From Adineta steineri (lineage: Eukaryota): a stretch of DNA of 64,000 bases. The stretch spans positions 59,707 to 123,706 of the forward strand of contig CAJNOI010000163.1 of the NCBI GenBank assembly GCA_905250115.1, given 5' to 3'. This document shows, one piece after another, positions 14,037-61,531 of this stretch (within the stretch, counting starts at the first letter, position 1; every line of letters starts with the position of its first letter). The position numbers and the translations under genes are program-made. The notes under the pieces are model-generated. The model was not told the DNA's origin and did not search any database. It was given only the letters and a program-made list of their open reading frames with translations.

Positions 14037-14287
14037 TAAATTGTAGACTTTTTTTATTTTCTTTTTCCATAAAAATTATGTTAGAATAAAATAAATTAGG
14101 AACTAATTTTTCACTCTGTTAGTAAAAGTTGCGACTGATTCATAAAATACAACATTCAAAAAACTGTAGGTTACATATAAATTCAAGTAAAAGTTTAATT
14201 TTGTATTTAGACGATAAACTACTTTCAAAATAATTACTATTGCATATGTCTTAAATACAATCGAATTAATATTTTATTGATATATAA

Positions 14288-18663: not shown

Positions 18664-21600
18664 ATGTCGAGAACTAAAGTCGAGCGTAAATATGTATGTG
18701 AATTTTATTTTATTTTTCCAGTAGAAATATATTTTTTGCTAATAGAATCCTGCTCAATATGATTCTGCATTTGATTCACTTCCGATTAATTCTCGTCGAT
18801 GTGTTGTCTTTTCTCCTGACAAGTAATAAGACATATTTTAAATAAAAATATTTAATTGATTATTATTCTTCAGTCCAAATAAGAAATTATGCCATTGTAA
18901 TCGAGCTGCAAATGAACATCCTGAAATAGATAATCAATCGAGAGAGAATGAACAATGGCGATTAGATACTCATACAATTAAAGAACCTAACAAAGAACAA
19001 GGTGTTTGTTTAACTAATGGAGCACCGGTATGAACAAAAAATAAAATAAATAAATTATATTGTTTATTTTCAATTGTATAGTATGTTCGATGTGATATTG
19101 AAACTGATCCAACTGTTGTTGAAACAATTCTTTTGGATATTTGGAAGATACCACGGCCAGCACTTTTAATGCAAATAATTGGTGGACATAAATATTTTAA
19201 ATTACAAGGAAAAATGGGAGATACTTTTCTTGATGATTTAGTGAAATTTGTAAGCAAATCAAGTAAGAATAAATTTTTTATTTTTATGTTTATATTGATT
19301 GGAAGTAAATTTTTGAAGACACTTGGTTACTTACAAGTGGAGCTAACGTTGGTATTGTTCAACTTCTTGGACAGACAATTCGCAAACGAAAATTAACCAA
19401 ACCACTAGATAAAACCGTAGCAATTGGTGTTTGTAATTATGGATGTATTAAAAATATAAAAGATTTTCAACGATTAGAACCAAATAATTTATCTTTAATT
19501 GAAAGTCAGGATTTAGTAAGTAGTTAAATCAAGAATTTTGAGTAAAATCTAAGAATTAAAAAAAAAAAGTTTATACAAATTATAAGAAAATATCTCCAGA
19601 GAGAGAAAAAAATGTAAAATATATTAGTAGTTCTTATTTAAAAAAAACGTTTCTTTTTCTATAGAAAAATGTGAATCAATGGCGAGCTGGTGAACAAAGT
19701 TTAGAAATGAATCATACACATTTTTTATTACTTGATGATGGAACAATTCGATATTTTGATATAGGTGATTATCGTACTCGTTTAGTAAAAACTATTGCAC
19801 ATAAACACACAAATCAAACTTTACCAAGTATAATTTATATTATTTTTCAAACAAAAAAAAATAATCAATTAAAATCTTTATATTTTAGTACCAATTGTAA
19901 CATTATTATTCGAAGGTGGTGAAGATTCAATTCGATCGATCTATAATGATCTTCGTAGAAATATTCCCATCATTATTATTAATGTAAATTATTCTAGTAA
20001 TAGAAAACTTATTATTTTATCTTTTAGAATACTGCTCGTATTGCTGATTATCTTGTTCGATGGTTATCAAGAACAACAGAAATGGATCTTGATGTTGATT
20101 GGACAAATCCAGTTGATATTAATGATTATATAATATCAAACAATTCAAATAATTTAGATTCTACTACGAATCCATCTAACAACTCTAATCAAAATCCGTA
20201 CGTAATATATTTAGAATTTATATACGACTTTTTTAATTTTATTACGCGAATACATAATAAGATGCCTGCCCTATAATGTCGCATATAGCAACTCCATCTT
20301 GGACTCAGTGAGGGGTTGGCAGGGGCGACGATTGTGGCGAAAAATCAGTTTTTGAAGTATCTTCGAAGTAGTATGTCATCTTTTTTAACGGCTTTTACTG
20401 AGAAAAAAGAATCGCGAAGGAATGACGGTCACCAATCACTGCGTTTGCCATTGCTTTGATTTAATTCTAACACCTCGGCTAATGGTTCTTCGTTTACTTG
20501 ATCTAATCAATAAATAATTTTCAAAGTTTTACTATGTATTCGCGTAATAAAACTAAAAATATTATGGCTAAGACTTTTGGTATATTTTTATTATTTAGTT
20601 TATTCGTAAAATTTGAAAAATATATCGATTCAATGAGTGATGAATTATTTCAAGCAATCAATGGTACTGATCAAAATCGTTCAAGAAAAATTATAATAAC
20701 AGATAATTTAAAAACAATTAATAATAATATTCTTCTTATGATTCTATATTGTTTACAACCAAAAGTTCGATCAAAAATAAGTATATTTGATTATAATAAA
20801 AATGAAAAATTATCTGAAACAATTCTTCGAAGTATTTGTAAATGTAAGAATTTGCTAATTAAATGTCTTATTTTTTTTCTATTTATTTTTTATAGCTGTT
20901 GAAATTAAAATTCATAAAAAGAAATCAAATTTAAAAAAAACTGATAATTTTATACCACATTTCGATCATCTACTTGAATTAGCAATTGATTGGGATTGTA
21001 TAAATACAGCAAAAGAATGGATTGTTCAAGATTCTCTCGATAATATTTATGATAAAAAATCTATATTTTTTCGAGCATTAACAAAACAACGACATAAATT
21101 TGTTCATTATTTTATTCAACTAGGATCTGAAATTGATGAAATATTTTTTCATCCAAAATTAAATCCATTTGCTTCAAGAAATAATAATAAACGTTATCAA
21201 GAATTCATATCATTATTATACACTGAAGAAGCTATTGTATGTATATGTCCTAGGGGAGATTAAATTTTGAAGGGTGCCAATGTGGGTGTGGGTGGGTGGG
21301 TATGGGTGTGGGTTGGGTGGATGTGGATTAGGTGTGGGCTGGGTGTGAGTATGATATTGGATGCGCTGGATCCACACCCATACTGACACCCTTCAAATTT
21401 TAATGTCCCCTAGGACAAATTAAAATCTTCAACTTTTAGTAGGAAATGTATGGAAAAAAACTATAATTTTAATTTCCCCTATAATATATATATAATAGTT
21501 AATGAATATTTCTATTTATTATTATTAGAATCGTGAAGATTGGTTACTTCGAAATATAATTCAAACTACAAATGATCGAAATGAAAAAATAATTTGTTCA

Positions 21601-24355
21601 ACTGATGATCTTAATCAATTATTTCGAGATCTTATTGGTGGTTATATCAAAAAGCTTTATTATGATACACAAATTGAAGAAGAAGAAGATCGTATGGGTA
21701 TTAAACATTTTACAAATATAATATCACCAATGCCTGATATTGAACAAGGACAATTAGTTCATACGGAAATTATTTATAAACAATTAGCAAAAGATTATAT
21801 TATTCGAGATCTTTTTCTTTGGGCTATCGCTATGAATTATATGGAACTTGCTAAAGTATTTCTTGCTCATATGAAAGATCGTATATGTGGAGCTTTAATA
21901 GCAACTGAAATTCTTTCACATTTACGTGATAAATCATCCGATGCTGTTTATGGTGATATTAAAGTTGATCTTACACGTTGGATTAAATATTTTGAACAAT
22001 ATGCACTTAATTGTATGGATTTATGTTTTAAAAATGATCCAAATATGGCACAAATATTAACTGTACAACGTGTAGAAGCGTTTGGTGATGTAACTTGTTT
22101 ACAGGTTAAAGAAAAAACAAAATTTTAAAACAAAAAATATTTGAATAATTTTTTCTATTAGGTAGCTGATGATGCAAATAGTAAACGATTTGCTTCACAT
22201 CCTTGTTGTAGACAAGCAGAGAATAGTATTTGGTATGATAAATTACATTCTGATCAATTTCATATACGTTATTATATCGGACAAGTAATTGGGATATGGA
22301 CATTAGGTTTACTTGCACCATTTACAGCGCGGTTTCGGTCTGTAAATCAAGTAAGAATTCTTTTGTTTTTCTATAACAAATTTTCGTTTTTTTTGTTATT
22401 GAAAGAACCCACTGCCAACTGAACCAACGTAAATAAAAATAAATAATTTTATTCAATAATAGTTTTTGTTTTTCTGTACTATATTTAGTTTACAACCATA
22501 TGGTATTAATTATTGTGATTCATATGCTATTAATCATTTTGATAACAATATTACTAAAAAATTGTATCAAATCTGGCAATTTCATCAATCTTTACATATT
22601 AAATTTACCTATCATCATGTATGATTTATTAAATAGATAATATAATTTATAAAATATTCTATTTTTTTTAGATTCAATATACAGTTTTTTTATTTTTATT
22701 CAGTTATGTTTTATTATTTAGTTTTGAACCAATTTATGATGATAAATCAAGCATTCATCTAGCAGAAATTTATGTTATTTTAAGCGTTACATGCATGCTT
22801 ATCGAAGAAATTCGTATTGTAATTTAAAACAAAAAAAAGAAATTTTTTTATTTTCTCGTATTTAGTTTTTTAGCCAAGATAGTCTTTCATTGATGGGCAA
22901 ATGTTATAATTATTTTGGTTATTTTTTCAAACAATTATGTTTAATTTCATTTCTTTTATTTTATATTGGTTTAATCTTACGATTTAAAGCTAATGGTTAT
23001 TCTGAAACTTTTCAAGCAGCTAGGTAAATTAGTTTTAAAATCATAAATAATTAAAAAACTTTTTTTTAATAGAGTTTTTTTGGGTTATGATTTATGGTTA
23101 TGGTGGATGAGATCTCTTTCATTCATTACAGTTAGTCCATTTCTTGGACCTCATTTAGTATCAATTGGAAAAATGGTAAGACATATACTAACGAGGGAAC
23201 ATACCAAACTGTCGGAGAGTGTGGGTGAGAGGAAAGAGAAGATCTACACCCACACCCACACCCTATGATAAAAAAATAGTTTTTGTATTTTAGTTAAAAA
23301 ATTTAGCATTTTTTGCTATATTTATCGCTGTTATGATGACTGCATATGGTGTAGCTTCACGATCGATGGCTTTTTATGGTACATTCCCATTTACTGGTCG
23401 AGAAATATTTAAATCCATTCTATATCCTGTTTATTATCTGCTCTATACAAATTTATCGGGTGAATTAAGTGGATTAGATGGTATATATATACATATATTG
23501 TAAAATACTCTGATGATGATGATGATGATTGATATTTTAGAATCGACCTATGATACTACAAGTATTGCTACGCATGTATTACTTGCTTTTCATATGCTTT
23601 TAATTAATGTTCTACTTGTTAATTTATTAATTGCAATGTTCAAGTATATTATTTGATTTTTTGTTTTCTACTATTGAATATTTTGTATTCTATATAATTT
23701 TAGTCAAAGTTTTCAAGATGTTCAATCGATTCAAACTGATATTTGGAATTATCAACAATATGCTGTTGTTAGAGAATATTATGATCGACCACCGTTATTC
23801 CTTCCATTCAGTACAATATTTGATATTATTGCTCTGATTAAAATGTTTTATCATTGGTATCTTCGAGTACGTTATAATTATGCTAATCCATTACAACGTG
23901 TATTTAGTAAGCTAAATTACCGAAGAAATGATAATTATTTTTAATGATTTTTGTTTTAGAAGTGATTGCTGTTCAACCAGAACTTGAACTTGTTTGGCAA
24001 GAATTTGAAAGTGCATCAACATATGCTTATGCACAACGTGAAGCATTGACTAAAATCGATAGGTGATTAAATATAAATAAAAGAAATTATTTTTGTATGA
24101 AATTTCTTATTTTTAGAGGAACCGTGGAAAATGATTCTGTTTCACGAGAATCCGGAGGTACAAGTGGAGATTCATCAGGAAGTAATAATCGAAAAGAAAA
24201 TGATGCAATTACGCAACTACGCAATGAATTTAAAATAGCAATTAGAGATATTCGAAATGATGTATGTTTAATGAAAATAATTATTAATCTTTTAGAACAT
24301 ACAATTATTTTTTTTCTTTAATTTTCAGATACGTCTTATCGCGAAACAAAAATGA
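18664..24355 (+). CDS. TRPM-type (melastatin-like) cation channel gene of more than 20 exons. It spans repeat-bearing introns.
   Basis: Proposed start MSRTKVERKY|NPAQYDSAFDSLPINSRRCVVFSPDNPNKKLCHCNRAANEHPE (compare the TRPM N-terminus ECVYF…CQCGY..HE). MHR region YVRCDIETDPTVVETILLDIWKIPRPALLMQIIGGHKYFKLQ…; LELAIDWDCINTAKEWIV (compare LELAMEWNRVDIAK). Pore/TRP region TSIATHVLLAFHMLLINVLLVNLLIAMF. C-terminus ends IRLIAKQK at about 24355. Two MITEs lie in its introns. Confidence 0.75.
20238..20560. mobile_element. MITE-like insertion of about 320 bp within a TRPM intron, with TIR TTTTATTACGCGAATACATAATAAG.
   Basis: 20238-20262 ttttattacgcgaatacataataag is the exact reverse complement of 20536-20560 cttattatgtattcgcgtaataaaa. 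The interior is GC-richer than the flanks and non-coding. Confidence 0.55.
21249..21415. mobile_element. Hairpin MITE of about 165 bp with 28-bp TIRs and a degenerate TGTGGG-like (telomere-motif) core, in a TRPM intron.
   Basis: TIR cctaggggagattaaattttgaagggtg … cacccttcaaattttaatgtcccctagg. Interior gtgggtgtgggtgggtgggtatgggtgtgggttgggtgg. Confidence 0.65.
23215..23268. repeat. Telomere-motif micro-hairpin (gtgtgggtg…cacccacacccacaccc).
   Basis: Inverted TGTGGG-like and CCCACA-like arms around a short spacer, in a TRPM intron. Confidence 0.5.
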
Positions 24356-40771: not shown

Positions 40772-41506
40772 CTTTTAAAAAGTGACAAGCGAATGAGTAA
40801 AGATAATATCAAAAAGGTACTGTTTTATTGATAAATCCCTTTACTGATATTTACTATTTTGTTCTTTCTTACATCGTATATCAATAAATAGTATGTTAGT
40901 TAGTCGTGAGAGGTGAAAGTATAATGTCTAGAGACAAAAGAAAATAAAAAAATATTTGATTAAGGTCTGTGAAAGAAAATAATTTCGATAAATCACTACG
41001 AAGATAGGGCGTAGGTGCGAATTTGTGTCATCTTTAACTGACATCCACTACACTCACATCTTGCATTTGATAGCTTCGTAAATTATTTCTATCGTTGATC
41101 TATACGATTTATTAAACATATAGTCTTTATCATTCATAAACTCCAAAACTTTTGGCTTGATTTCAACGAAAAACAATATAACTAAAATTAACATAGATGA
41201 TATTGTCGTGAGATTGAGAATGATAAAAGAAATACTCTCAAACAATTAGCGACGATATTAATGATAAAATGTAGTAATACTGTATTGGCGGAAAAGTAAA
41301 AATTTCCATAGAATACCTTGCATTACATCGGCTTGTGCAATAACATTACATGCATACAACGTGCAGAATTGTTAAAAATATTTACCTACTTATTTTTCTT
41401 TGTATCGGAGTTACATGTTACTGAATGAGTCATTCGTTCTATATCTCGACATTGAAAAATCAGTCAAAAAAAATGAATATGTTCGAAAATTCTTGATTAA
41501 TTTCAG

Positions 41507-44500
41507 ATGAAACAATCTACAATATCTAATTTAGTTTTATCACCATTTAATGATATAACAATTGTACTTGAGCTTGGCCGTGAAAAAAGTTTCAAAGCTA
41601 AACAAGAAATAATCAACTATTTACGAGAACAACGAGCACACATTTCATATATTCTTACAGCTAGTGTATGTATAATTTTCTTCTTCTATATCATACATAC
41701 CTTAGTTTTTTCAAGACTGATTATGTTTTGACAACCGAGAATGTTGATAGTTATAAGATACGTCGTGCTAAACAACTCGGCATACCAATAATCAATATTG
41801 AATATGTGTATGAATATCGTCGCTTACCATCTGGTCAATCATTAATTGATATTAACAAATTTATTATCAAATCCGTTGAAGATCAAGAAAATTTTATAAA
41901 AACTGGAACTATTCCTGTTGCAGGTAATAATCAGGTTTCCCTCTTCTAAAAATCATGTCATATATCCTTATTCGATTAGAATCTCGAGTAAATTCGATCA
42001 AAATCAATAAATTCGATCTAAATAAAATCAAGTTATGGAATTCAGACGATGCGAATTTACCTCGTTTCGATGATTCAACACATTGTGAAATTGGCAAATG
42101 GGCTATTTTTAAAGTTTATTTCTATAGCTATTCTTTTCTTATATTTCTATTGTTCATAACAGGAAATCAACGATAATTCAAATGTATTTTTCGTTCTTGA
42201 ACTTCAAATTATTCCTGAACAATACTATGATCAAACAACGAGTGATTATCGACTACGATTTCGATATGAAAAACAACAACAAGATAAAAATATATTAATA
42301 CAATATGCATTTGGAAATGATCCAAATGAACTACAACAATTATTTGCATCATATTATTATCGATTATCATCAATGCCACGTATAATACGAATTCGTGACA
42401 AATTACCTAATCAATTCGGTTCAAAATTATTATTACGTGTAAGTAAATAACATTTAATGAAAAGAATAAAACAATTGTGATCTCAGTCTTTATTTACTCA
42501 TCGTATTGATACACAAATACTTGATGAAAATGTCTGTCAATTAATTGAATCATTATGGTTAGAATCAATTGGTGATCTAAATAAAATTTTGAGTATATCA
42601 CCTGAATCAATCACTCTTAAAACGGTATATTTATATTTATATTTATTTTTCTATATATCGAAATTAGTTTAATATAGATCATTGAAGCAGAAGCTGTATT
42701 GCTGAAACTCAAATCAACTCAAGATCCTGCTGCGGCACTTCATTTCTATTCACTTATACCACATCGACCACAATATACTATTGATCTCATAAAAAATCGT
42801 CGAGTATTGATTGAGAAAATCGATTTATGTCAAGTATATTTCATTCCTTTTTATTCATTTCACTTGATCTTTTATCTATTCAGATGCTTCGAGATATGCT
42901 TACAGTTAATGAATTAACTAATTGGAATGTTAAAGCACCCATTGAAGCTAAATACCGAGCATTGAAATGCTATATAGAAACAATAGCAAGTTCAACATCT
43001 GAATATAAAAATATTGTTAAACTTATTCAATCATCAACAGATAGGTATGAAAATTTGAATTAACTCAACTTCAAGTTTTTTTGTTTACTATAGTGGTGAA
43101 CAAATTATTATTCATAATATATTCAATGTGACTAAACAAACTGATGTACTTAATTTTTGTAATACATTATCAAATCAACGACAACTATTTCATGGATCGA
43201 AATATACGAATTTTCTTGGAATTCTTTCACGGTAAAATAATCAATTCATTCTTTAATATTTCTATTTATGATTATGTATATATATTTAGTGGTTTAGTCA
43301 TGCCTAAAATGGTAATTGAAGAATTAGGTGTTGCACGTACTGATATTGGTTGTCTTGGTTATGGAATTTACTTTTCTGATTCTGTTTCTACCTCTCTTAA
43401 ATATACGTCGCCAAGCACAGTACGACCAGGACGTCGATTATTATGCATTTGTCAAGTAGCATTAGGTGAATCAGCTAATTATTATTCATTTTCATCAACG
43501 CTCAACAAGCCTCCGGATGGTTTCCACAGTACACACGGAGTTAAACGAACAGAAGATAATCATTCAATGTTTACTGTAAGCATAATTATAGTATCGATTC
43601 CTATAATCACAAATATTATTTAGGATGATGAATATGTAATCTATCAATTAGATCAACAACTTTTACACTACATTGTCGAAGTATCATGGATACCGAATGA
43701 TATTGTCAATATTGAATTAGAACGATTACCTATTGTTCATCATCAACAAGATGTATTAAAATTAAGTGAACATGGTAATGATGATTGTGTTTTTATTAGA
43801 TTATATATTTTATATATTCTAGTCGAAGTTCCAATGACAATTGATGATGATGTTATTGAAATTGCGGAACAAGATTATGGTTTGATATGTCCATCATCAG
43901 GCAAACTTGTTCCATTAAAATCCTACCATATTCGTGCTCAAATTGTTGATGTTACAGTTGAAGTAATTCAATCTGTAGTGTAAAAAAAATGTAAATTCAT
44001 CATTTTTCTATTTAATGCAAAGGTTGTTCTCTATCAAGTCTATTATAACATGAGTTCTACACCAATCGAAGCAAAATATGTATTTCCTTTAGATGAAAAT
44101 TCAACTGTATGTGGTTTTGAAGCACATATCAATAATAAAATCATCAAAGGTGTTGTTAAAGAGAAAGAACAAGCTAAACAAGAATATCGAGAAGCAATTG
44201 AAAAAGGTCATGGTGCTTATTTAATGCATCAAGAACAAGCACAAGTATTTAGTGTTGCTGTAGGTAATTTACCAGCAAATACTGAAGTTATTATCAAAAT
44301 TACATATGTTGCTGAATTAGAAATTGAAAATGGTGATATCATTTTTCGTTTTCCATCTAAAATGACTTCATGGCAATCGAAACAAGCAATTGAAACTCGA
44401 GATCAATCATCGCTACGATCAATTGGTATTGTTGATGAAAAAGTTGAATTTAGTTTTAAAGCATCAATACGTATGCCATATAATATAATAAAATTATTTT

Positions 44501-46209
44501 CTCCAACACATCGCCTTCGTCGAAAACTAACTGATTGTATAGCTATGATTGAACTCCTTGATAATGTTCTACTTGATCGAGATTTTATTCTTTCCATAAC
44601 ACTTGATAGTACGAATTTACCTCGAATATCAAATGAAACAAGTGATCTATCAAATAATTTTAATTCTCAAGCGTGTATGCTTACTTTCTATCCACGATTT
44701 GAAATATCAACAAATACAAATGAACAAATTGAACTTATTTTTATTATTGATGTATCAAATTCAATGAATGGAAATTATGTAAAACAAGCGAAACAATTAG
44801 CTCATTTATTTTTAACAAATTTAAAAACTGATGATACAAATACATACTTTAATGTTATTACTTTTGGATCAGGTAATAAAATAGGATTCCCGAGTTTTTC
44901 TTAATTAAATTTAAATTATTTAGATAATGATGAATGTTTTCCAATATCAATGTTAACTACGAAAGAAAATCTTGATAAAGCTAAACATTATGTTCTAGTT
45001 CGTAGTTTTCTTCTTTTCGATCGTGAAATATGTTTGATTATATATATTTTAGCATTCACCTATTCATCGTGGTAATACGGATCTATATGCTGTTCTACAT
45101 CGTTACTCATTATTATCATCAGTATCGGTAAAATTTGGACGTCAATTTATTCTTTTATCTGATGGACATATTCATGATCTTAATTCAATTCTTCTTCTAT
45201 TTAAACATCGATCGACAATGCGTCATGATCGTTTATTTTCATGTTCAATTGGTGATGTTGCTAATAAACATGCTTTAAAACAATTAAGTAATGGAGCAAG
45301 TGGAGGTGGTTTAACAATAATATTTGATTCAAATTATCGATCGAAATGGAAAACAAAAGTATTAAATATTCTTGAATATGTTCGACAACCATGTGTTACA
45401 AGTATATCAATCGATTGGCATGGTCAATTAGATGAAGAACAAAAGTTTAATATGCAAGCACCTAAAATGATTCGATCTTTATTCAATGGTATGCGTTTGA
45501 CTGTCTATCGATTTATACGAAATTGTCATAAGGCAACATTAACAGCTATTATTGATGGACAAGAATTTGTTACTACTGTATTTAGCAGTCCAATGACAAC
45601 AACTAAAGGACGTATTTTACATTGTTTAACTGCTCGAGCACTTATCGATGATTATGATAATGGAATATTGAATATAGACGAGAGTGAAAATGAATTGATT
45701 AAGATTCAATATAAACAAGATCTTATTGATTTAAGTATTAAACATTCTGTTGTTAGTGCATATACAAGTTTTGTTGCCATTGAAGAACGTGATGTTAAAA
45801 CGGATACAAAACCGGTTCAACCAGGTGAGTAGATTCGTCGGTTAATAAGAAACAAGCAAAATTAAAAGTTGTTTTAGGTGTTCATCGTCTTCAAGTTATG
45901 CTCGAAGGTGATGAAGACTTATTACCATATATGGGATGGGATGGTGATGTATCAAATTTAACTTCAATCAAACAGAAATTAATTGATGCACGTATTTCAC
46001 TTGATAGTGCATCGATTCTAAGCAAAAGAGAAATAATTATTGATATTGAAAAACTTTGTCAAACAATTTCTTATCGAACAGGTGGTGATGCTAAATTTAA
46101 TACAATGATGAGTATTATACGTACATATCGTTATTCATTGAATGAATACGATAAAGCAAATGAAATAGAAGATACAATGAAAAGCGGTATATTGAATGAT
46201 TTAAGATAA
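41507..46209 (+). CDS. Vault poly(ADP-ribose) polymerase-like gene (PARP4/vPARP architecture: BRCT, PARP regulatory and catalytic, VIT, vWA), about 14 exons.
   Basis: BRCT DYVLTTENVDSYKIRRAKQLGIPIINIEYVYEY. Catalytic triad intact: QLFHGSKYTNFLGILSRG (H), GYGIYFSDSVSTSLKY (Y), DDEYVIYQLDQQ (E). VIT domain YVFPLDENSTVCGFEAHINNKIIKGVVKEKEQAKQEYREAIEKGHGAYLM. vWA MIDAS IFIIDVSNSMNG. Stop at 46207-46209. Confidence 0.75.
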
Positions 46210-46586
46210 ATATTAACTCTATATATATATATATTAAATTTAAAAAATAAATAGATATAACAACTGAAATGATTAATGCAACACCAGAAGAACAACAGAT
46301 ATTACAACAACATTGTCAAGCTAACAATTTTATAATCCCACGCGACGAAATGTATGTAAAATAAGAAAATATTTTAAAAAAAATTTGCATTTATTTTCTT
46401 GTAGTGAACCAATGGTTGATTTAAATGGTAAGAAAATAACTTGATTATTAAACTTTGAATATAGCCCAGAAAAAAAAGTAAATAAAATATTTATCTTTAA
46501 TTTTTATGGATTTAGGTCAGCTTGGAAGTGATTTGAAACAATTAACACCAATGGAGCAAAAGGTAAAGATAGAAAAACTATGCACT

Positions 46587-47284
46587 ATGGTAAGTTAATT
46601 TAATATCATATATATATGTAGAAACAACGCTGAAAATTAAATATTTTATTCTAGGCTGATCAATTGACAGAAGAACAAATAGCTGAGTTTCAAGAAGCTT
46701 TTTATCTATTTGACAAAGATGGTGATGGAACAATTACAACAAGACAATTGGGTACGAAATTCTTTATTTATTTTTCTTTAGATCTATATATATTTATTTA
46801 AATATTGATTAGGTACAGTGATGCGCGGTCTTGGTCAAAATCCAACTGAAGCTGAATTGCAAGATATGATCAATGAAGTTGATGCTGATGGTAAGGTTTT
46901 AATCAATCAAATAGTAAACTTGATTATATTAAAAAAGAAAAGAATTTTTAACCTTTGATTGAAAATTTACTTCTGTTTGTTTTATTGTTAGGTAATGGTA
47001 CAGTTGATTTTCCTGACTTTTTAACGATGATGGCACGTAAAATGAAGGATACTGATTCGGAAGAAGAAATTCGCGAAGCATTCCGTGTCTTTGACAAGGA
47101 CGGTACTGGATTTTTATCAGCTGATGACTTGCGGTAAAGGAAAAAACTAGTATATAAATATATTTATTCTGCTTTCTTTCAAGTCATATCATGACAAATT
47201 TGGGTGAGAAACTCACCGATGAAGAAATTGATGAAGTCCTTCGAGACGCAAATATTGATGAAGGTTAGACTGTTATTTTTATTA
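46587..47284 (+). CDS. Calmodulin-like gene. Exon 1 is ATG only, followed by 4 exons encoding EF hands 1-3 and half of EF hand 4. The C-terminus is truncated or divergent.
   Basis: ATG|gtaagt at 46587-46592. Then [133 protein letters not shown], about 90% identical to canonical CaM over residues 1-133. The frame then hits TAG (47282-47284). No exon encoding DGQVNYEEFVQMMTAK was found downstream. Confidence 0.65.
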
Positions 47285-47461
47285 AAGAATACTTTCTTGC
47301 CTGAAGAAACGGTCATATGAAGAAAATTTGATTTTGTATGTCTGTCTGTATGTTTGTAGCAAAATCAAAAAAAACATCCCCCTAAAGATTAATGCTTAGG
47401 TTTCTTTCATATCTAGCTTTCGTCTAGTCAGTTTCTTTTGCATTAAAATTTCAGCCAATCG

Positions 47462-47530
47462 AGTGGATGGGTGTAGTGTGAGTGTAGTTATAGATATTAC
47501 ATCCGTCTTTCTTACACACCCTTATGTTTG
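47462..47530. repeat. Telomere-motif micro-hairpin (gtggatgggtgtagtgtgagtgtag…ttacacaccc), located just 3' of the calmodulin-like gene.
   Basis: G-rich TG/GGGTG arm opposed by cacaccc. It sits where the missing last calmodulin exon would be expected. Confidence 0.4.
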
Positions 47531-47876
47531 GTTTTAGAGGGGAAACCTGTACAGAAAGATTACCCATGGCAACACGTGTTAAAAGCATTAGAATCAACGG
47601 ATGATTGGAATAACGTCGATTTGAGCGTTTTGGACTGTATGGATGAATCATCCTATTCAGATTTTAGTAAGTTATACAAATAGTTAAAAAAAACTTTCAT
47701 GAAAAGAAAAATATTGAATTGTGAGAATTATAAACAAGTGTTACGAAAATATTTAATTTAGTATAGCAATATTTTCAGTGATGTTGATTTTATGGTCTAT
47801 ATTAGTTGCAGTCACAAAAAAAAATTAGTTATCGTTATGAATCTTCTTTTTAGCAAACCGTGCATCAGAAATACAA

Positions 47877-50496
47877 TTGAAAAAAGCTAATTACACACAA
47901 GTATCATGTGAGGACGAGGAAGCAGCTTTTTCGGACAGTGAAAATGACGATAACGAATATTATGAACCATCTTCTCCTCGGTTTACACCCATTCGTAGAT
48001 CTTCTTTTACGAGTCATGATTTGGCCACTCCAATGATGGTTGTAACTAATGAAGAAGAACGCTCTCAAAAAACGAATTTACTATTAAGATCACAACCTGA
48101 TTACATGCCAACATCTCCTAGTTATAAAAAAACAGAAGAAAAGAAAGAGAAAAAAAGTAAGATCGTTATAATTAACAAATCCATTTTATATATTCATTAT
48201 AGAATCAGTGCCTGAACCATCACAACCAAAGTTTGATACTACAATACCAATGTTCGTATATTTCAGACTTTCTATCATGTAAACATTGACATTTTCATTT
48301 AGGATGGAAAGTTGTAAGATGCCATCATCGGATCGCAGCGAAAGTCCTATGAATAATAGTAAGATATGAAGCTCATCTTAGCAATGTTTATGAGTTCAGT
48401 ACACTTGAGTTTTGACTGATTTTTCAAAATTAAAATCATTAAGAATTACCAAATTTTCCTCGAGCACGATCTTTAGTCATTGTAGTTCAATATTTCAATT
48501 AATTCGTTATACATATTAAATATGTTCATTTTAGGTATCGAATTAATAACATCAATCGATCCTTTTGACAATGTTGCAGATACTTCTGTTCCTTCTCCTG
48601 CACCATCGTCATCAACAGCAGCATATCGAACAATATCGCTATCAGAAGAAGCAGCATCATCTTCATCTAGGCAGGGTGGCAGCTGTATGGGATCTTCTAT
48701 AGTATCAGAACCGAAGCTAATTATTAGTAAGATAGAATCAAACAACTTTTTCCGACCATTTGAATTAATAAACTATATGATCATAGATACATCTTTTCAA
48801 TCCTACATAAAACCTGGCAAACATGGTCGCGGTCGAGTTATTACATATGATTCACAAGAACCTATTGCTAATATACAAGTTGAAACACTACAAACAAATT
48901 CTACATTTGTACATATTGATCAAGATATATTATATGATGAAAAGTGTGATGATGCAAGAGATATGACGAAAACTTCAATATATAATACACCTATCTGTGA
49001 TCTACTACTTCTCGATGTCTCTCCACTTAGTTTGGGCGTCGAAGATATTTACGGTAATATGCATATACTTATTCCTCGTAATACAACCATTCCAACACGA
49101 ACTCAATTTTATCCAATATTTACAAATGCATATGCTTATCAAACAACAGCTACTATTCGCATATTTGAAGGTGAACATACTCTCACAAAATACAATGTAT
49201 GTAATGTTTTAATTTGATAAACATTTTATTTCTAATTTTCCCTATTGTATAGATGTTCTTGCACGAATTCAGTCTTTCTGATTTAACAAATAATTTTGCT
49301 GCTGAGACACTTGAAATATCTATTCGTATGGATATTGATGCTAATGGTATACTTCATGTCGATGCTGAAGAAGTTTGCTCGGGTGCCAAAACTTCATTGA
49401 CTTTCGGAAATGATAAACATAGTTTGCTAATGATTGAGATATTTGATATTATCATTAAATAGTATTTATATTTATGTAGAATCAACAAAAGATGATATTG
49501 AGCAACATATTTTATTTATAGAACGTGATGCAAATTGTAAAGCTAAATATGGTTAGTTTTCAAAGGATATATTATATTTAATTAGTATTATTTTTTGTAG
49601 TTCGTAACCGTAAACCAGATGATCCTCGATATCCAGTTCGTATTCTGTTATCTTTGTATAGTTTGATTGTTTTTATTTTTTATCTTTTGTTAGTTGAATG
49701 GTCAAATTCAAGGTATAATACACAACTTTTCCAGTGAATTTGGTACTTCATTCGGTAATTTATTCGTAGTTCTTGTTTTGAGAAATATATTGTAATCATA
49801 TATAAATTCAGGTCAAACGATTACTGCTCCACTTCTCAGTAAACTAAAAGATATCCGTTTTACAACAACAATGATTGAAGAGCTAATGAAACTTCAATCT
49901 GAAGTATTATTATTTACAAAATTCCATTAACTATTTATTATATTCCATTTGATTTACATATAGGATGGCTCATTTGCATTAAATATAGATTTAGCTAATG
50001 TACTTTATATCAATCATAAGATCTTTAATGATCTTGAACATTATTTACGTGAACAAGGCTTTAACTCACTCGGTGAGAATGAATAATTTATTGGTAAAGT
50101 TTAGAGACATGTATTTCAATTTTCTTAGCTTTAAGTATACAAAATGAAATTCTTCGTTTGATTGGTACGGGCATCATTCTCATATGGCTTGTTTTTCAAG
50201 CGCAAGTTTTAGAACAAAATACATCACAATTTAAATTTAACTTGGAACAAATCATGGTAAATGGATTCTTTTTAGATCTTCTTCTTTTTACATTTTCATC
50301 TTTCTAGATATCTACGGTTCCTCTGTACAATCATTTACCTTCTAAGCTGATCGAACAAATTAGCAAAGCTATTGAATTCTATCAACAAACAAGTCAACAT
50401 AATAATATATATTGTAGTCAATTGGAGTTGAAGGATCCAACGTGGGACATATTTATTCAACATTTGTTCATTGATATCGATCATGTCAATAATTAA
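47877..50496 (+). CDS. Protein with an Hsp70-type substrate-binding domain but no nucleotide-binding domain. It has an acidic/S-P-rich N-terminus. Multi-exon.
   Basis: LLLLDVSPLSLGVEDIYGNMHILIPRNTTIPTRTQ…TIRIFEGEHTLTKYN (compare Hsp70 LLLLDVAPLSLGIETAGGVMT.LIKRNTTIPTKQTQ…IQVYEGER.MTKDN). The next exon has LEISIRMDIDANGILHVDAEE (compare IEVTFDIDANGILNVSA). Upstream exons encode EDEEAAFSDSENDDNEYYEPSSPRF… and PSPAPSSSTAAY…, with no ATPase motifs. Confidence 0.55.
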
Positions 50497-50778: not shown

Positions 50779-52329
50779 TTAAACTTTAGTTAAAATCCAA
50801 CGTAGGGCATCGTTTTGAACAAAATCGACGATGCCGACGTTGGATGTATCATGAAGAGCAAATACACGCCACCATGCATTTCGAGGTCGGAAGCGGAATA
50901 CATTGTTTCCGTACGAAGAAAGTACCCATTCCTGATTAACATTGCTTGACCAATTGTTTGTTTGAACTCCACCAGTTTTTGCCGTTACATTGTAAGCGGT
51001 AAGAGCACTGGCGTTGGCATTTTGTGACGATAATCGATAAGTACCATTATCAAGCCAACTAATATTCCATTTCTGATGTGCACTATTGCATCCTCCACTT
51101 TCTAATTGAACTCTACTGACGTTGCCATTGACATAAGTACTAAGACATTTATCTGGTTGTGATTTCGGCGCGAGACGATAAATGCCATCGGGAAGAACAC
51201 GAGCTAATTCTTCTTGCATTTGCATATAGGCCGGTTTCAGCTGATAATTCGAGTCACTAGGTAGTGCAGCTCCTTCCGTATTGTTATAAAAAGCAGGAAC
51301 CCAACTGTATCGATCGGTGAAACCCCAAGTGATTAGTGCACGACATCTTGGAGAAAAGTGTAATGCATACTTCAAGAGAGCACGATAGAGACGGCCTTGT
51401 CTCTCTAAATCATTCGGATCTCGAGGATTTCCTGCATTTATCGGAATAGCTACATCTAACTCAGTTACCATGAAATCAAAGTCATTGTCTATTAATCGTT
51501 GAGCATTCTGGTAATGTTGATCACCAGGATTGACTGTTCGTGAGATTCGTATATGCCATTGCATACCAACACCGTGAATGGTAGCACCTTGTGATCTCAC
51601 CCATTTGATTAGTTCAAGTACTCTACTTGATTTTGATCCCATATCTTCATTATTATAATCATTGTAATATAATTGAGCCTGAGGATCAGCTTGATGAGCA
51701 AACATAAAAGCATATTTAACAAAATCTTGGCCCAATTTTCGATACCAAAAGCAATCACGCAAATTAAATGGACGACTATTATTCTTCGAATCCTCGACGG
51801 CTTCATTTACTACATCCCACCAAAGTACTTTGCTTCGGTAGCGACCGACTACTGCATGAATGTAATCACTCAACAATAACTTGACTTTGTCGGATGATAA
51901 TGACGATTCCTGTTTCAATAACCAGTCTGGCGTATATTTGTCTTGAGCCCACACTAGAGTATGTCCTCGTATTTGCATTCCATTCTGTTGAGCCCATCCT
52001 GTGGAATTTGGTGTCGAGCCCAAAAGCCAATCACAGTCGATCCAACTGTAATTGTTTATACCACGCCACAGTTTCATAGGTTTAAAATCGTTCTCCGGCT
52101 CAATCACATGATAGTTTTTTTTTATAAAGGAGTTGTACTGGCCACCGTCGATATCCTTTCGTAAATTGTTAATGCTAGCTGCTGTGCCAAATAAAACGCC
52201 GCGAAGAGCTGAAGATGCTCGAAGTCCAAATGGATCTATTGCCCTAACAGGTGCACTATTCATCAAGTAGTACCATAGTAGTATCGTCGTCCACTTCCTG
52301 ATGAACGATGATGAGAAATGGCACTGCAT
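50779..52329 (-). CDS. Secreted GH10 endo-1,4-beta-xylanase with a C-terminal ricin-B lectin (CBM13) domain, intronless, 516 aa.
   Basis: GH10 catalytic signatures WDVVNEAVED (acid/base Glu) and MVTELDVAIP (nucleophile Glu). HTLVW and ITWGFTD are also present. C-terminal QxW repeats: AHQKWNISWLDNGTYRL, NQEWVLSSYGNNVFRFR, NDALRWIL. N-terminal signal peptide. The ORF is GC-richer than its flanks. Confidence 0.85.
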   Translation of the reverse strand: MQCHFSSSFIRKWTTILLWYYLMNSAPVRAIDPFGLRASSALRGVLFGTAASINNLRKDIDGGQYNSFIKKNYHVIEPENDFKPMKLWRGINNYSWIDCDWLLGSTPNSTGWAQQNGMQIRGHTLVWAQDKYTPDWLLKQESSLSSDKVKLLLSDYIHAVVGRYRSKVLWWDVVNEAVEDSKNNSRPFNLRDCFWYRKLGQDFVKYAFMFAHQADPQAQLYYNDYNNEDMGSKSSRVLELIKWVRSQGATIHGVGMQWHIRISRTVNPGDQHYQNAQRLIDNDFDFMVTELDVAIPINAGNPRDPNDLERQGRLYRALLKYALHFSPRCRALITWGFTDRYSWVPAFYNNTEGAALPSDSNYQLKPAYMQMQEELARVLPDGIYRLAPKSQPDKCLSTYVNGNVSRVQLESGGCNSAHQKWNISWLDNGTYRLSSQNANASALTAYNVTAKTGGVQTNNWSSNVNQEWVLSSYGNNVFRFRPRNAWWRVFALHDTSNVGIVDFVQNDALRWILTKV

Positions 52330-52985: not shown

Positions 52986-54047
52986 TTATGAGAGGTTGGA
53001 CATTTTTCTTTTAGAAATTCCACGTGCATCACATTCGCAGATATTTAAAAGAATATCTATAGCACGAGAGTCAGAATTTGTAATGATTATGTCTTGATAA
53101 GTATCATCATTAAAATCATAAACACCAATATCAGATCCATAACGGACCATCTTATCCGATAATATGTTTTGCGTCTCAAAATAGCCGTCCCCATATCCAA
53201 GTAGCACATCTATACCATATGGCCTACCCGCAGCAGCAATGTCTAAATGATCATCACAATTAAAATCACCTACAACAACTGTAGATGGTATGCGATTAGA
53301 TTTCATGACAAAGTTATTCTTGACGGTGAAAAATCCATTTCTATATTTAGACAACACAGTGACTATGTTTATGCGTTCATCAGAGACAACGACGTCTGGT
53401 TGAGCATCGCCGTCAAAATCACCGCTTACACTATGGTGTGGATCAGAACCCAGGAAAGTATAAGATCGCTTCTGTACTTCAAAAGTTCCATTACCGCACC
53501 CAAGAAATATACCAACATTTACAGCTCTACTATTGGTGACAGCAATATCTACGTGTCCATCGCTATTAAAGTCACTAACAGTCAATGATTCAGGCTCACT
53601 TTGATATCCAGTAGAAAACATCAGCTGCGGTGAAAAAGTGTCATTAGCATTTCCAAAAAACACACAGACATTAGAATTAACAGTATTAATGACAGCAATA
53701 TCTGAATAATTGTCATGATTGAAGTCGACTACAACGATGTCATCGGGTATACATTTCGTTGTCCCTAATATTATATTCCGGACTCTAAAAGTTCCGTTAC
53801 TATTTCCAAATAGAATGTTTACATAGTTTGCATCGCTAATGGTGAATACGAGATCGGCTCGATTATCATTATTGAAATCACCAACTTTCATATGTGTCAT
53901 CCATAAAAAACTTCCTTTTTGAAAAATATTTTCTTTTGTAAAACGTCCGTTAGCATTCCCAGACAGTATGATCACACTTTCGTGATAGTTAGAAAAAACC
54001 ATAATATCAAGCCGACTGTCATCGTTGAAATCAGCAACAGCAAACAT
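52986..54047 (-). CDS. FG-GAP/VCBS-repeat (integrin-alpha-like beta-propeller) protein. The main ORF is intronless and there is a possible short upstream signal-peptide exon.
   Basis: At least 7 repeats of the form DFN(N/H/S)D.hhDIhV…h(F/L)GNGNGTF, for example VGDFNNDNRADLVFTISDANYVNILFGNSNGTF, VVDFNHDNYSDIAVINTVNSNVCVFFGNANDTF, VSDFNSDGHVDIAVTNSRAVNVGIFLGCGNGTF. An aatag acceptor lies just upstream of the first ATG in frame. Confidence 0.7.
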   Translation of the reverse strand: MFAVADFNDDSRLDIMVFSNYHESVIILSGNANGRFTKENIFQKGSFLWMTHMKVGDFNNDNRADLVFTISDANYVNILFGNSNGTFRVRNIILGTTKCIPDDIVVVDFNHDNYSDIAVINTVNSNVCVFFGNANDTFSPQLMFSTGYQSEPESLTVSDFNSDGHVDIAVTNSRAVNVGIFLGCGNGTFEVQKRSYTFLGSDPHHSVSGDFDGDAQPDVVVSDERINIVTVLSKYRNGFFTVKNNFVMKSNRIPSTVVVGDFNCDDHLDIAAAGRPYGIDVLLGYGDGYFETQNILSDKMVRYGSDIGVYDFNDDTYQDIIITNSDSRAIDILLNICECDARGISKRKMSNLS

Positions 54048-55345: not shown

Positions 55346-57022
55346 TTACAATTTGAATGAATACAACAGAACAAAAACATACCGAGATGTTATAGATGTC
55401 GGTCTCGATTCTGAGTTAGAAGCAGGATTATGTATGGTTGTGCTAAGAGTAACATTTGGTGTTATTTCAAGAGAATTGACAGGATGAATAGTATTCATCC
55501 GTTTTTTTCGATAATTATTTACTCTAAATGCAATTCGAACTATTTTAGGACAAATCCATTTAAGAACAATTGCTAAACCACCTTGAAGACCAAGTAAGAC
55601 AGTTATTATATAGATAAAGCTGCTTTTTTTTTGAATATAAGTATATGAACAATACGATAGAGAACATGCATGAAAATAAGATGAATAATTCATCTTCGTC
55701 TCCCATTTCTCGATGAATAGATTATCGATAAGTACAGCTATTGTAGTGTTTATTGAGAAGCGACTCCTATTGGCCAAGAGAGGATTATGAGATTTCGTAT
55801 AATTAGTATATTTATGAACGAGATCAATACATGAACGATCATAAAAACATTCAAGAGTCGAAGCACGAAATGATTCGCTTGGAGTACAACCAATTTTCAA
55901 ACCTTTAATTGGAGTTATTTCAGATGAATTTGATTTAATAAAATTTGCTTGACTTGTACAATTTAAATACAATCCACAAGAACACCCGTCATAAATTATA
56001 GCTCGAGTAGACGCATAAGTATATTTACGTGAATTCGGAACACCAATATATTCGAAATTTGTTGTATATGTTGACATGTAAGCATTTCCATGATTGATAT
56101 TTCGAATTAAGAAGAGAAGTTGACGGAATGTAGTAGGTACATTTGATTTGGTTTGTTCGATTAACGAATCAAGTTGATCACGAAAATTTGTTTCAGATAG
56201 AAGTTGAGAAGTAACAAATAGTGAGGTACGAAACTGGTTAATAGAATCGTATACTGATGTATTAGAGAGTTGACATAGTCCTTGAAGAGCTTGTAAATGA
56301 GCAGAAAGAAAACGACGATAGTCTCTTGATACATAAATAGACAAGTTAGAGATAAGACCAGATATAAGATCATTTCGGTATTGTTTTGTTGCAAATGGAC
56401 TCATACAAATCTATAAATAACAAAAGAAATAAAAAGAGGGAAAAACTATATTCTCAATTTCTATATAAAGCGTCCACAAAAACATTCTCATAAAATAAAC
56501 CTCCTTTTTTCAGTCAACTATCAACATATTTATTAAAGATATTATTCATTTCGGTTGTCAAGATTTATAATAGAGACGAAGAGAAGAACCGCCACTATAT
56601 CAACTATCGTTTATATTGAGCAGATTAGTATAATCTTAACTAACCGCATGAAATATTGGTTCAATTTCGATAAACTGATCATAAGTCGATGCAATCACTG
56701 AGCATGGACATTTTAATTCATCTCCATATTTTTGTCTTGAATCATTGTAAAACCTAAAAGATGGTTTATTGAAAGTCTTTGTCACTACTTGTGGTTGAAC
56801 TACGGTATAGATGGTGAGGATACTAAGACCACCGATGAATAAAGCAATGTAGAGACGGGTCGCCCATTGACCAAGACGTTTAGCTATTATTCGATCCATA
56901 CCACTACCCATATCACGTAATGAGAATATGTTTAGATCGATCAAAGTGGTACGCAAAAGTTTAATCAGACTTCGCATAGTAATTCTGAATCGATCGCACC
57001 AATTTTGATGAACTATACACAC
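55346..57022 (-). CDS. Member 1 of a lineage-specific two-TM membrane protein family with an N-terminal signal anchor, a conserved C-P-C-S motif, a large Cys-containing ectodomain and a C-terminal TM. Two exons: 57022 to about 56640 and about 56404 to 55346.
   Basis: Exon 1 …LYIALFIGGLSILTIYTVVQPQVVTKTFNKPSFRFYNDSRQKYGDELKCPCSVIASTYDQFIEIEPIFHAV. Exon 2 …GCSCGLYLNCTSQ…LECFYDRSCIDLV…YFHACSLSYCSYTYIQKKSSFIYIITVLLGLQGGLAIVL (C-terminal TM) followed by a basic tail. Paralogs lie at 57445-60984 and 61532-63009. Confidence 0.55.
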
Positions 57023-57097
57023 AAAAACAAATTATACATTTTCTTCGTTGATATAAAGTTTACTATTTCTCAACCGAAAAAGATGGTTGAAAAAAAT

Positions 57098-57160
57098 TTA
57101 CATGTTGGGTGTGGGTGTGGGTGCGTAGTCATTCGATTTCATTGACACCCACATCCGACT
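57098..57160. repeat. Telomere-motif micro-hairpin (catgttgggtgtgggtgtgggtgcg…cattgacacccacatcc).
   Basis: Contains (TGTGGG)2-like units, with an inverted cacccacat end. Confidence 0.5.
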
Positions 57161-57444
57161 CTTATTGACTTTTACTCACCTATAGTCTATTTTTTTTTGA
57201 CTCTCTTCGATTTCCTAGCACTATAAAGATATATCTCTTCTAGCGACAAAAGTCTTGAACTGTTTGAATTTTATTGAACTATCAATTCTTAAATCTTTTT
57301 AATAATCAATAGTAAAGTATCATGTTAGATGATACATCAATTTTTCTTACTTTTCTTCTCATTTTATACAAAATATATCATATAAAACATAAATCGTTGT
57401 TATATAAATATATTTACTCCGTACTTATTTTTATAGATATATTA

Positions 57445-60984: not shown

Positions 60985-61531
60985 AAATTGAACAATAGAA
61001 ATTTATCATTTATTAATGATAAAAGACATTCAATGAGGAATTTGAGAAGTTCATTAACATAGATTTCAATATCTTCTAGAAGAATCAGTAGTATTACACA
61101 TGAAAAATGTATTTAATTCTCGTAATTTCATTGAGAAAATCAAGTATTAAATAAATCAATATTTGCAGTTCAAATGTTCAACTATTGTCAAGAGAAATAG
61201 CCTGTATATGTTTTTTAATATCCAGATATCTGAGAACCAACATTCACTTACTAATTATTTTGGCATCTGAATATAACTTTCTACTGTAGTATATATGTAC
61301 TCAACAAAAAACAAAGTTATGTACAGTAAAATATAACTATACCAGTTAGTAAAATCAAATAGACATATGTGGTAATCTTTTGTTGTTTAATACTGTTTTC
61401 TGTTCGATCATTGGCCTTCTTAAATAAGTTTAATCGTTTCATCCATTGAGTAAATCTGCTCAAACGCATGTTTTGATGCACTATGAATTAAATATAAATT
61501 TTATTTACTATGAAATATTTTTTTATTTATT

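Follow-up and report, generated by a model that had tools for sequence, protein, structure and literature searches.

Xylan-catabolism transcripts of foreign origin are common to bdelloid rotifers and have been read as digestive (Eyres et al. 2015, PMC4632278), about 80% of the candidates for horizontal gene transfer (HGT) are common to four bdelloid species (PMC5916493), and plant-cell-wall enzymes acquired by transfer are on record from Szydlowski et al. 2015, as relayed in PMC5916493, and from the CAZyme repertoire of A. vaga, as relayed in PMC4498783. These papers deal with xylan enzymes as a category, and the literature we searched yielded no mention of a GH10-CBM13 family in bdelloids or of its affinity to Armatimonadota-type proteins, and no link between an Armatimonadota/Abditibacteria donor and bdelloid HGT. 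Both the gene analyzed here and the phenomenon that it represents are already public: thousands of genes in bdelloid genomes are foreign, those for xylan-degrading enzymes among them, and this gene has been auto-annotated as an endo-1,4-beta-xylanase (the UniRef name for CAF1146689.1). The locus compares with these cases as an intact, intron-free gene for a putatively xylan-digesting enzyme that is bacterial in origin, was acquired anciently by bdelloid rotifers, and is still under selection.

The gene lies in a 64-kb stretch of Adineta steineri DNA (the window), where an open reading frame (ORF) at 50779..52329 on the minus strand runs from ATG to a TAA stop in one continuous frame and encodes 516 aa. 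By our own calculation, the chance of an open frame of this length is about 1e-19 (with stops expected at about 8% of codons in DNA of 30% GC), and the ORF can be taken as real and complete. The sequence-only reading of this stretch had described a single-exon gene, which agrees both with the uninterrupted frame and with the gene models of relatives, which measure exactly 3 x aa + 3 bases, introns being absent from all copies inspected. A tblastn search of the 64-kb window returned one locus only, with no second GH10 copy; a truncated extra GH10 copy is present only in the other A. steineri assembly.

From M23 onward, the protein matches GenBank CAF1146689.1 / CAF1318616.1 (UniRef100_A0A815EZ81, A. 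steineri) exactly. This public record of the same gene starts at M23 (494 aa) and leaves out a 22-residue N-terminal extension, which is found as the same 22 codons in frame in the second A. steineri assembly. The extension forms most of a putative signal peptide (aa 1-29, MQCHFSSSFIRKWTTILLWYYLMNSAPVRA, 52243..52329, minus strand), for which the evidence comes from paralog alignment, the second assembly and an AlphaFold model: residues 1-29 align with the clearer signal peptides or N-terminal signal-like segments of paralogs, and the model predicts a helix over residues 7-24 followed by a low-confidence stretch at 25-29. The n-region contains R11/K12 and is followed by WTTILLWYYLM and then V-R-A before I30, with an h-region that is only moderately hydrophobic (maximum Kyte-Doolittle value of 1.5 over 9 residues). 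We infer that the enzyme is probably secreted, and the correction to the public gene model restores the segment that would direct it.

The catalytic domain spans aa 38-372 (51214..52218, minus strand). It matches Pfam PF00331 with E=1.7e-74 and scores 251.3 bits where 22.1 is the cut-off, the alignment extending over profile positions 4-309 of 311; the corresponding match to PDB entry 1xyz, a solved GH10 xylanase, has E=3.3e-55. The AlphaFold model (mean pLDDT 90.8) superimposes on 1xyz in Foldseek with a TM score of 0.93 (normalized to the target) and an rmsd of 2.1 Å, and each of the 50 best PDB matches listed is a GH10 structure. Both catalytic glutamates named in the sequence-only reading align with the motifs of the solved enzyme, with N175-E176 at the catalytic NE motif and T289-E290-L-D292 at the TE motif. 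The acid/base catalyst E176 lies in WDVVNEA (codon GAA, 51802..51804, minus strand) and the nucleophile E290 in VTELDV (codon GAG, 51460..51462, minus strand), and N175, E176, E290 and D292 are invariant across 55 family members. Family model, predicted (beta/alpha)8 barrel fold and both motifs together indicate membership of glycoside hydrolase family 10 (CAZy GH10, clan GH-A), and the residues of the catalytic domain, as aligned, are those of classical endo-1,4-beta-xylanases. GH10 also covers other specificities, endo-beta-1,3-xylanase being one example, and because of this, family membership does not settle the substrate.

The C-terminal domain (aa 381-516, 50782..51189, minus strand) is predicted to be a ricin-type, CBM13-like beta-trefoil of three repeats of about 45 residues. 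The match to Pfam RicinB_lectin_2, at 29.7 bits, exceeds the cut-off of 25.6, the AlphaFold model is all-beta over aa 382-515, and Foldseek matches the domain to 1xyf. A single-sequence PDB search with this domain gave only a weak match to ThreeFoil, and a family profile was required to obtain ThreeFoil at 5.3e-14 across all three repeats and the Streptomyces CBM13 structure 1knl at 6e-6, with HA33 and 1isv also recovered. The earlier description of a CBM13 lectin domain with three QxW repeats thus stands as regards the trefoil, but only two of the repeats carry a canonical QxW (Q419-K-W421 and Q466-E-W468), the third site being a degenerate L509-R-W511 at a position where most paralogs have QxW. 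The Asp of the L-D-V sugar pocket, whose role is established for R-type lectins, is missing from all three subdomains: where ThreeFoil has this Asp, the rotifer protein aligns with S397, T444 and A491. The pocket Asp is retained in two repeats by some paralogs, the Didymodactylos copy for one. As aligned, the canonical sugar pockets of the lectin domain are degenerate, and because the pocket Asp is absent from every subdomain, it is doubtful that the trefoil targets the enzyme to xylan.

These features bear directly on what the protein may do for the animal. The product would be a secreted retaining endo-beta-1,4-xylanase that follows the standard GH10 double displacement, with E290 attacking the anomeric carbon and E176 serving as acid/base, and its likely role would be the digestion of xylan, extracellularly or in the gut, from plant, moss or algal detritus. 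Alternatively, the gene may have been retained for a protein that does not digest plant xylan but acts in defense or on the wall polysaccharides of algae or fungi, with a trefoil that does something other than bind xylan. The replacement of the pocket Asp in all three repeats and the LRW at the third QxW site are compatible with such a role, as is the spread of specificities within GH10. That bdelloids upregulate foreign glycoside hydrolases upon fungal infection (PMC11258130) points the same way. Against this stand the classical xylanase residues of the catalytic domain, the fact that the nearest solved structures are all xylanases, and the digestive reading given to bdelloid xylan-catabolism genes in the literature (PMC4632278). 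On balance, we consider a nondigestive role unlikely and xylan digestion the preferred reading.

All named close relatives of the protein come from bdelloid rotifers (Adineta, Rotaria, Didymodactylos), and the 120 best matches include no named metazoan from outside the bdelloids. Outside the bdelloids, the best match is a xylanase from an Abditibacteriaceae bacterium metagenome-assembled genome, HEX8236633.1 (P0121; 473 bits, 49% identity), in an alignment that spans the GH10 domain, the linker and most of the trefoil; its gene sits among typical bacterial genes on a contig of 362 kb. A search of 185,579 GTDB species genomes placed three Armatimonadota at the top (4e-87 to 2e-80), followed by Fibrobacteria at 2e-61, and a reciprocal search with the Abditibacteriaceae protein led to Fimbriimonas ginsengisoli, Fimbriimonadaceae and the bdelloid family. 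In neighbor-joining trees built from one domain, the bdelloid family is monophyletic (bootstrap 98-100%) and lies inside a group of Armatimonadota-type GH10 proteins (bootstrap 93-95%), the named non-bdelloid members of this group all being Armatimonadota or Abditibacteriota, and several of the nearest bacterial-type sequences are metagenome proteins without names. The sister relationship to Abditibacteriaceae has a bootstrap of 20-47%, too low to decide the exact sister taxon, and the exact donor can only be suggested, as a bacterium of this general type. The nearest sequences outside the bdelloids, Abditibacteriaceae, Fimbriimonas and other Armatimonadota, are thus bacterial rather than fungal, oomycete or metazoan.

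Given a bdelloid clade nested among bacterial GH10s and a bacterial best match, sequence comparison indicates that the transfer was bacterial and ancient and was followed by duplication, and that it predates the separation of Adineta, Rotaria and Didymodactylos; the neighbors of the Rotaria ortholog differ from those in the window, so synteny adds no dating information. The horizontal transfer proposed in the sequence-only reading is supported by phylogeny, composition and linkage alike, and can now be refined to a bacterial donor. Non-metazoan best matches, linkage to metazoan genes and clan membership, the features by which bdelloid HGT is recognized (Nowell et al. 2018, PMC5916493), are all present at this locus.

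A fungal or oomycete donor in place of a bacterium would be conceivable on general grounds, as fungi often act as donors to bdelloids and are rich in GH10 xylanases (general knowledge, and Szydlowski et al. 2015 as relayed in PMC5916493). Yet the solved fungal GH10s score only 107-137 bits against the rotifer protein, compared with 191 for Clostridium thermocellum XynZ, the highest-scoring bacterial GH10 of solved structure, and 296-473 for the Armatimonadota/Abditibacteriota proteins, every named non-rotifer protein in the well-supported group with the rotifer clade is bacterial, and the two-domain architecture with its conserved linker is common to the Abditibacteriaceae protein. We saw no fungal or oomycete GH10 of >50% identity grouping with the bdelloids among the best 150 representatives (which carry no organism names), and we regard such a donor as very improbable.

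Vertical inheritance from an ancestral animal GH10, with loss from most other animal lineages, is likewise very unlikely. GH10 genes do occur in a few other animals, such as the beetle Hypothenemus hampei, but the beetle gene has itself been attributed to transfer from Streptomyces (PMC4943190), and vertical descent would have to accommodate a close family whose named members are all bdelloid, the nesting of that family in a bacterial radiation with 93-95% support, and the absence of introns from all inspected copies.

The sequence-only reading had also noted that the gene is richer in GC than the neighboring animal genes. Its GC content is 0.409 and its GC3 0.333, against a pooled GC3 of 0.169 in the exons of neighboring animal-type genes (z=7.7). 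No GC3 value in the window is higher, though an FG-GAP ORF (0.28) and another ORF (0.30) come close. The flanks have 27-28% GC, compared with 41% in the gene and 51-58% in the bacterial loci, and the rotifer GC3 falls far below that of the Abditibacteriaceae homolog (0.33 vs 0.69, in a gene of 57% GC). Such a composition fits an old and largely ameliorated transfer. Relative to the 95%-identical copy in the second assembly, the gene shows 31 synonymous changes and 12 nonsynonymous ones (dN/dS = 0.098), and it is under purifying selection.

Physical linkage places the gene among those of the host. Its 3' end faces a convergent multi-exon eukaryotic gene on the plus strand with PARP, VIT, VWA and HSP70-like exons (41501..49217, from Pfam matches on exon ORFs), the last long coding ORF of which lies about 1.6 kb away; in the second assembly (GCA_905250065.1, L001), a 2034-aa PARP-VIT-VWA gene model, which has EF-hand matches in addition, ends 276 bp from the GH10 stop. 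On the opposite side are ORFs with FG-GAP or no Pfam matches. The same 64-kb window holds a multi-exon TRPM channel gene (19082..24318, plus strand; SLOG-in-TRPM and TRPM2-like domains, in the concatenated exon ORFs, PF18139 matches with E=1.8e-25 and PF25508 with E=3.3e-20) as well as M13 peptidase and Argonaute genes, all intron-bearing like the PARP-VIT-VWA gene, and a 7TM receptor gene. The linkage to metazoan genes that the earlier reading had asked to see confirmed is thus found on a shared contig, and the GH10-PARP region is collinear, at 95% identity, in the independent assembly. That the ORF is a bacterial contaminant assembled or misjoined into a rotifer contig, as the missing introns and the bacterial identity of the closest non-rotifer relatives might suggest, has a negligible probability and is excluded because the same linkage recurs in the second A. 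steineri assembly, the AT-rich flanks, the intron-bearing genes elsewhere on the contig, the low GC3 relative to the bacterial homolog, and an identity of <=49% to any bacterium against 65-77% to orthologs in other bdelloid genera all counting further against it. We reject contamination along with transfer from a fungus and vertical inheritance.

Taken as a whole, the explanation that we prefer, and consider very probable, is that A. steineri, a bdelloid rotifer, has a functional nuclear gene at this locus, with the enzyme, single bacterial transfer and role proposed here. A bacterium of Armatimonadota/Abditibacteriota type would have passed a two-domain gene, GH10 plus ricin-type trefoil, to the bdelloid stem lineage in one ancient transfer, after which the gene would have taken on the AT-rich composition of its host, gained a eukaryote-style signal peptide, and duplicated into several paralog lineages, with tandem arrays in some genomes. 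We further hypothesize, tentatively and as a proposal that falls a little short of evenly balanced, that the whole bdelloid GH10-trefoil family derives from a single pre-radiation transfer from an Abditibacteria/Armatimonadota-like donor of shared moss, soil or crust habitats, and is now animal-specific, intronless and tandem-amplified, with a lectin module that has lost its canonical pockets and has perhaps been repurposed. If true, this single-transfer reading would name a donor phylum and offer a tractable case of post-transfer domain evolution. The locus shows cleanly, and with good linkage, how an animal has domesticated a plant-cell-wall enzyme of bacteria, and as such it is one more case rather than a new concept; its new points are modest, comprising the Armatimonadota/Abditibacteriota-type affinity, the corrected N-terminus, the degenerate lectin pockets, and a paralog lineage that appears older than the split of Adineta, Rotaria and Didymodactylos.

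Among known systems, the bdelloid cell-wall enzymes acquired by HGT represent the same phenomenon, that is, microbial glycoside hydrolases in an animal genome, mostly ancient and read as digestive. The Streptomyces-derived GH10 of H. hampei (PMC4943190) represents a separate transfer from a different donor. The catalytic domain of C. thermocellum XynZ (1xyz) is the best solved match both by sequence (34% identity) and by fold, but belongs to a cellulosomal multidomain protein and is phylogenetically not the closest relative. HEX8236633.1 shares the GH10-linker-trefoil architecture, including a conserved linker (YWQMQEELGRNLPDGVYRLS vs YMQMQEELARVLPDGIYRLA), whereas most Armatimonadota relatives are without the trefoil domain; HEX8236633.1 differs in the 57% GC of its gene and in its bacterial neighborhood, and the bacterial proteins have a loop insertion of about 9 residues, which follows the strand of the nucleophile and is missing from every aligned bdelloid copy. 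The same design of a GH10 barrel with a C-terminal CBM13 beta-trefoil is found in Streptomyces olivaceoviridis FXYN (1xyf, 1isv) and S. lividans Xyn10A (CBM13, 1knl), and Foldseek aligns 497 columns of the rotifer model to 1xyf across both domains, although overall identity to the Streptomyces GH10-CBM13 proteins is only 24-25%. All three sugar sites of the Streptomyces CBM13 are functional, whereas in the rotifer copy none of the three retains the pocket Asp and one QxW is degenerate.

The GH10–trefoil gene lies at 50779..52329 (-) as an uninterrupted frame of 516 amino acids from ATG to TAA. For an open frame of this length we calculate a chance probability of ~1e-19, given ~8% stops among random codons at the GC content of the window (0.298, about 30%). 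The complete, single-exon ORF of the sequence-only reading is thus borne out, and every inspected copy of the family is exactly 3 × aa + 3 long and hence lacks introns. The GH10 domain spans aa 38–372 (Pfam, E=1.7e-74), with a ricin-type trefoil at the C-terminus (RicinB_lectin_2, 29.7 bits, cut-off 25.6). The nearest solved structures are GH10 xylanases throughout, and alignment to the catalytic domain of Clostridium thermocellum XynZ (1xyz) recovers both of the catalytic glutamates claimed previously, in the acid/base motif WDVVNEA (E176) and the nucleophile motif VTELDV (E290). With 55 family members as input, AlphaFold gives a confident model (mean pLDDT 90.8), which superimposes on 1xyz with a TM of 0.93 (normalised to target) and an rmsd of 2.1 Å; both domains of the Streptomyces olivaceoviridis GH10–CBM13 xylanase align with it.

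Across the 55 members, N175, E176, Q257, H259, E290, D292 and W335 are invariant, and W343 nearly so, while the two A. steineri copies differ at 31 synonymous and 12 nonsynonymous sites (dS 0.10, dN/dS 0.098), which argues that selection maintains the gene as an active GH10 enzyme. The double-displacement chemistry of GH10 enzymes is established, and by analogy the rotifer enzyme would use it, its likely role being to digest xylan from detritus or algal food. This would agree with the literature, which reads the foreign xylan-catabolism transcripts common to all bdelloids examined as digestive (PMC4632278).

Searched as a profile, the C-terminal domain hits the designed protein ThreeFoil over all three repeats (5e-14), as well as the trefoils of botulinum HA33 and the CBM13 modules found in Streptomyces xylanases (1knl, 6e-6; 1isv, 6e-4), and on this basis the beta-trefoil assignment holds. 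Of the three QxW repeats described earlier, however, only two are canonical, the third reading LRW. Furthermore, whereas ThreeFoil carries a pocket Asp, the aligned rotifer positions are S397, T444 and A491; some paralogs retain the Asp in two repeats. As this residue is central to sugar binding in R-type lectins, xylan targeting by the trefoil of the window copy is uncertain, and we class the domain as CBM13-like, not as a proven CBM13.

GenBank entries CAF1146689.1 / CAF1318616.1 (Adineta steineri; UniRef name endo-1,4-beta-xylanase) match the protein exactly from M23 to the end. Both the CAF1146689.1 model and P0001, the GH10 protein of a second A. steineri assembly (GCA_905250065.1), begin at M23 and so lack a 22-codon extension at the N-terminus (52264-52329, -). 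Since this in-frame extension is common to the copies in both assemblies and lines up with signal-like N-terminal segments of paralogs, the true product most likely has 516 aa and includes a signal peptide, which would make the public model truncated. As the hydrophobic core of this segment is moderate only, secretion is likewise putative.

A contaminant contig can be rejected, because the GH10 gene adjoins a large PARP-VIT-VWA gene (41.5–49.2 kb, converging on the GH10 3' end) in two independent assemblies alike. In the second, the PARP-VIT-VWA model (with EF-hand matches too) stops 276 bp from the GH10 stop, and P0001, 98% identical to the window protein, sits on a 292-kb contig (CAJNON010000115.1) collinear with the window over ~17 kb at about 95% nucleotide identity. 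Linkage to metazoan genes is likewise confirmed within the window, where the intron-split eukaryotic genes, besides PARP-VIT-VWA, include Argonaute (7–9.9 kb), an M13 peptidase (15.2–17.8 kb), a TRPM channel (SLOG-in-TRPM and TRPM2-like domains, about 19–24 kb) and a rhodopsin-type (7TM) receptor (33.6–34.6 kb). Between the 7TM receptor and PARP genes, a stretch otherwise poor in ORFs contains a stand-alone ubiquitin-like ORF (40514-40774, -; Pfam ubiquitin, E=2e-15). Directly beyond the PARP-VIT-VWA gene, the 292-kb contig bears a truncated third GH10 copy (20513-21485), whose 230-aa model corresponds to aa 287–516, plus about 230 bp of 3' flank, and is 95.6% identical to the window copy and to the main copy of that contig alike. 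The window has no counterpart at the equivalent place (about 41673), and this copy could reflect either a genuine segmental duplication or a join made in assembly.

The gene (GC 0.409) is flanked by DNA of 27–28% GC, and its GC3 of 0.333 is the highest among 19 long window ORFs (range 0.07–0.30) and significantly above the 0.169 of exons pooled from animal-type neighbours (z=7.7), as the sequence-only reading had anticipated. It is nevertheless below that of the nearest bacterial homolog (GC 0.57, GC3 0.69), so that its composition is mostly, though not completely, ameliorated, which is what an old transfer would lead one to expect.

In a search of 5.8 billion proteins, the named sequences among the best 120 matches are bdelloid only (A. 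steineri, Rotaria sp. Silwood1, Didymodactylos carnosus, A. ricciae, A. vaga), the remainder being metagenome proteins of like architecture (45–77% identity). The next tier, found by exhaustive search of 50%-identity representatives, holds a Fimbriimonas (Armatimonadota) cluster and P0121, a xylanase from an Abditibacteriaceae MAG (473 bits, 49% identity), whose match runs from the GH10 domain through the linker and over most of the trefoil. P0121 is genuinely bacterial, as its neighbours on a 362-kb contig are histidine kinases, phytochrome, PPK2 and 6PGD. A GTDB scan (one genome per species) places three Armatimonadota MAGs first (4e-87 to 2e-80), followed after a gap by Fibrobacteria (2e-61) and Streptomyces (about 1e-53), and these three Armatimonadota genomes are the best named matches of the sister-group metagenome members in every case. 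Reciprocally, P0121 retrieves GH10-only Fimbriimonas ginsengisoli and Fimbriimonadaceae proteins (50–63% identity), interleaved with the bdelloid family at 43–48%. Solved fungal GH10s reach only 107–137 bits; the named nearest non-bdelloid matches are bacterial (Abditibacteriaceae, Armatimonadota).

Neighbour-joining trees of the GH10 domain (Kimura distances, 100–500 bootstraps) recover the bdelloid-type family as monophyletic (98–100%) inside a group with Armatimonadota-type bacterial proteins (93% with 251 sequences, 95% with 125). In the denser tree the sequences that branch next to this family are the four two-domain proteins of bacterial type (P0126, P0130, P0121, P0305), joined at nodes of only 20–47% support; thus, affinity at phylum level is well supported, unlike the exact donor. 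Homology extends through the linker (YMQMQEELARVLPDGIYRLA vs YWQMQEELGRNLPDGVYRLS), and a loop deletion after the nucleophile strand is common to all aligned bdelloid copies, a pattern that fits the two domains having been transferred together in one gene, which then diverged among bdelloids. The bacterial affinity, bdelloid monophyly and linkage to animal genes together support the horizontal transfer originally proposed.

The paralog lineage of the window copy unites A. steineri, Rotaria and Didymodactylos sequences (bootstrap 100%), whereas the copies from A. vaga and A. ricciae fall into several other lineages, with vaga/ricciae pairs in each, indicating that duplication is older than the divergence of these genera. 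Within this lineage, A. steineri is 74% identical to Rotaria and 65% to Didymodactylos; the Rotaria ortholog has neighbours unlike those in the window. In A. vaga and A. ricciae the best proteins reach only 52–56% identity, so the ortholog seems missing from these species, or absent from the database. Five tandem intronless family genes adjoining a fragmented GH3 gene, at 7376-21063 of an environmental long-read contig (ERZ26165376 ctg355139, 396 kb, 38% GC), point to local amplification in some genomes.

Elsewhere in the window, single-ORF genes with microbial-type domains are interspersed among the multi-exon animal genes: META (114-602, +), ADP-ribosylglycohydrolase (3364-4716, -), Pirin (5318-6076, -), GDSL lipase (10723-11625, -), FMO-like (12813-14036, +), BNR/sialidase-like (24440-25673, -) and FG-GAP repeat (52986-54047, -), all probable candidates for further horizontal acquisition. 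In a run of exon-sized LRR_6 (RNI-like) ORFs (29639-32196, +), 31404-31628 and 31830-32054 give identical 75-aa translations, which points to either a tandem duplication of very recent date or a repeat arising in assembly. Paralogous ORFs without a Pfam match (55346-63027, -) share the motif L-x-C-P-C-S-x(4)-Y-x-x-F, have hydrophobic segments at their C-termini, and appear to be an uncharacterised tandem membrane protein family, possibly lineage-specific.

Our literature search found no description of a bdelloid GH10–trefoil family or of its Armatimonadota-type affinity. The kind of system is already known: clan tests assign a foreign origin to 6–9% of bdelloid genes, about 80% of those being common to four species (PMC5916493); Rotaria and Adineta are listed as having foreign enzymes for the catabolism of cellulose, xylan and pectin (PMC4632278); A. 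vaga is cited as having 623 glycoside hydrolases, the richest animal CAZyme set (cited in PMC4498783); and a beetle carries a Streptomyces-derived GH10 (PMC4943190). The rotifer gene is itself already deposited and annotated. Beside these systems, the Armatimonadota-type donor affinity is an incremental detail, and the corrected gene model and the degeneration of the lectin pockets likewise add little.
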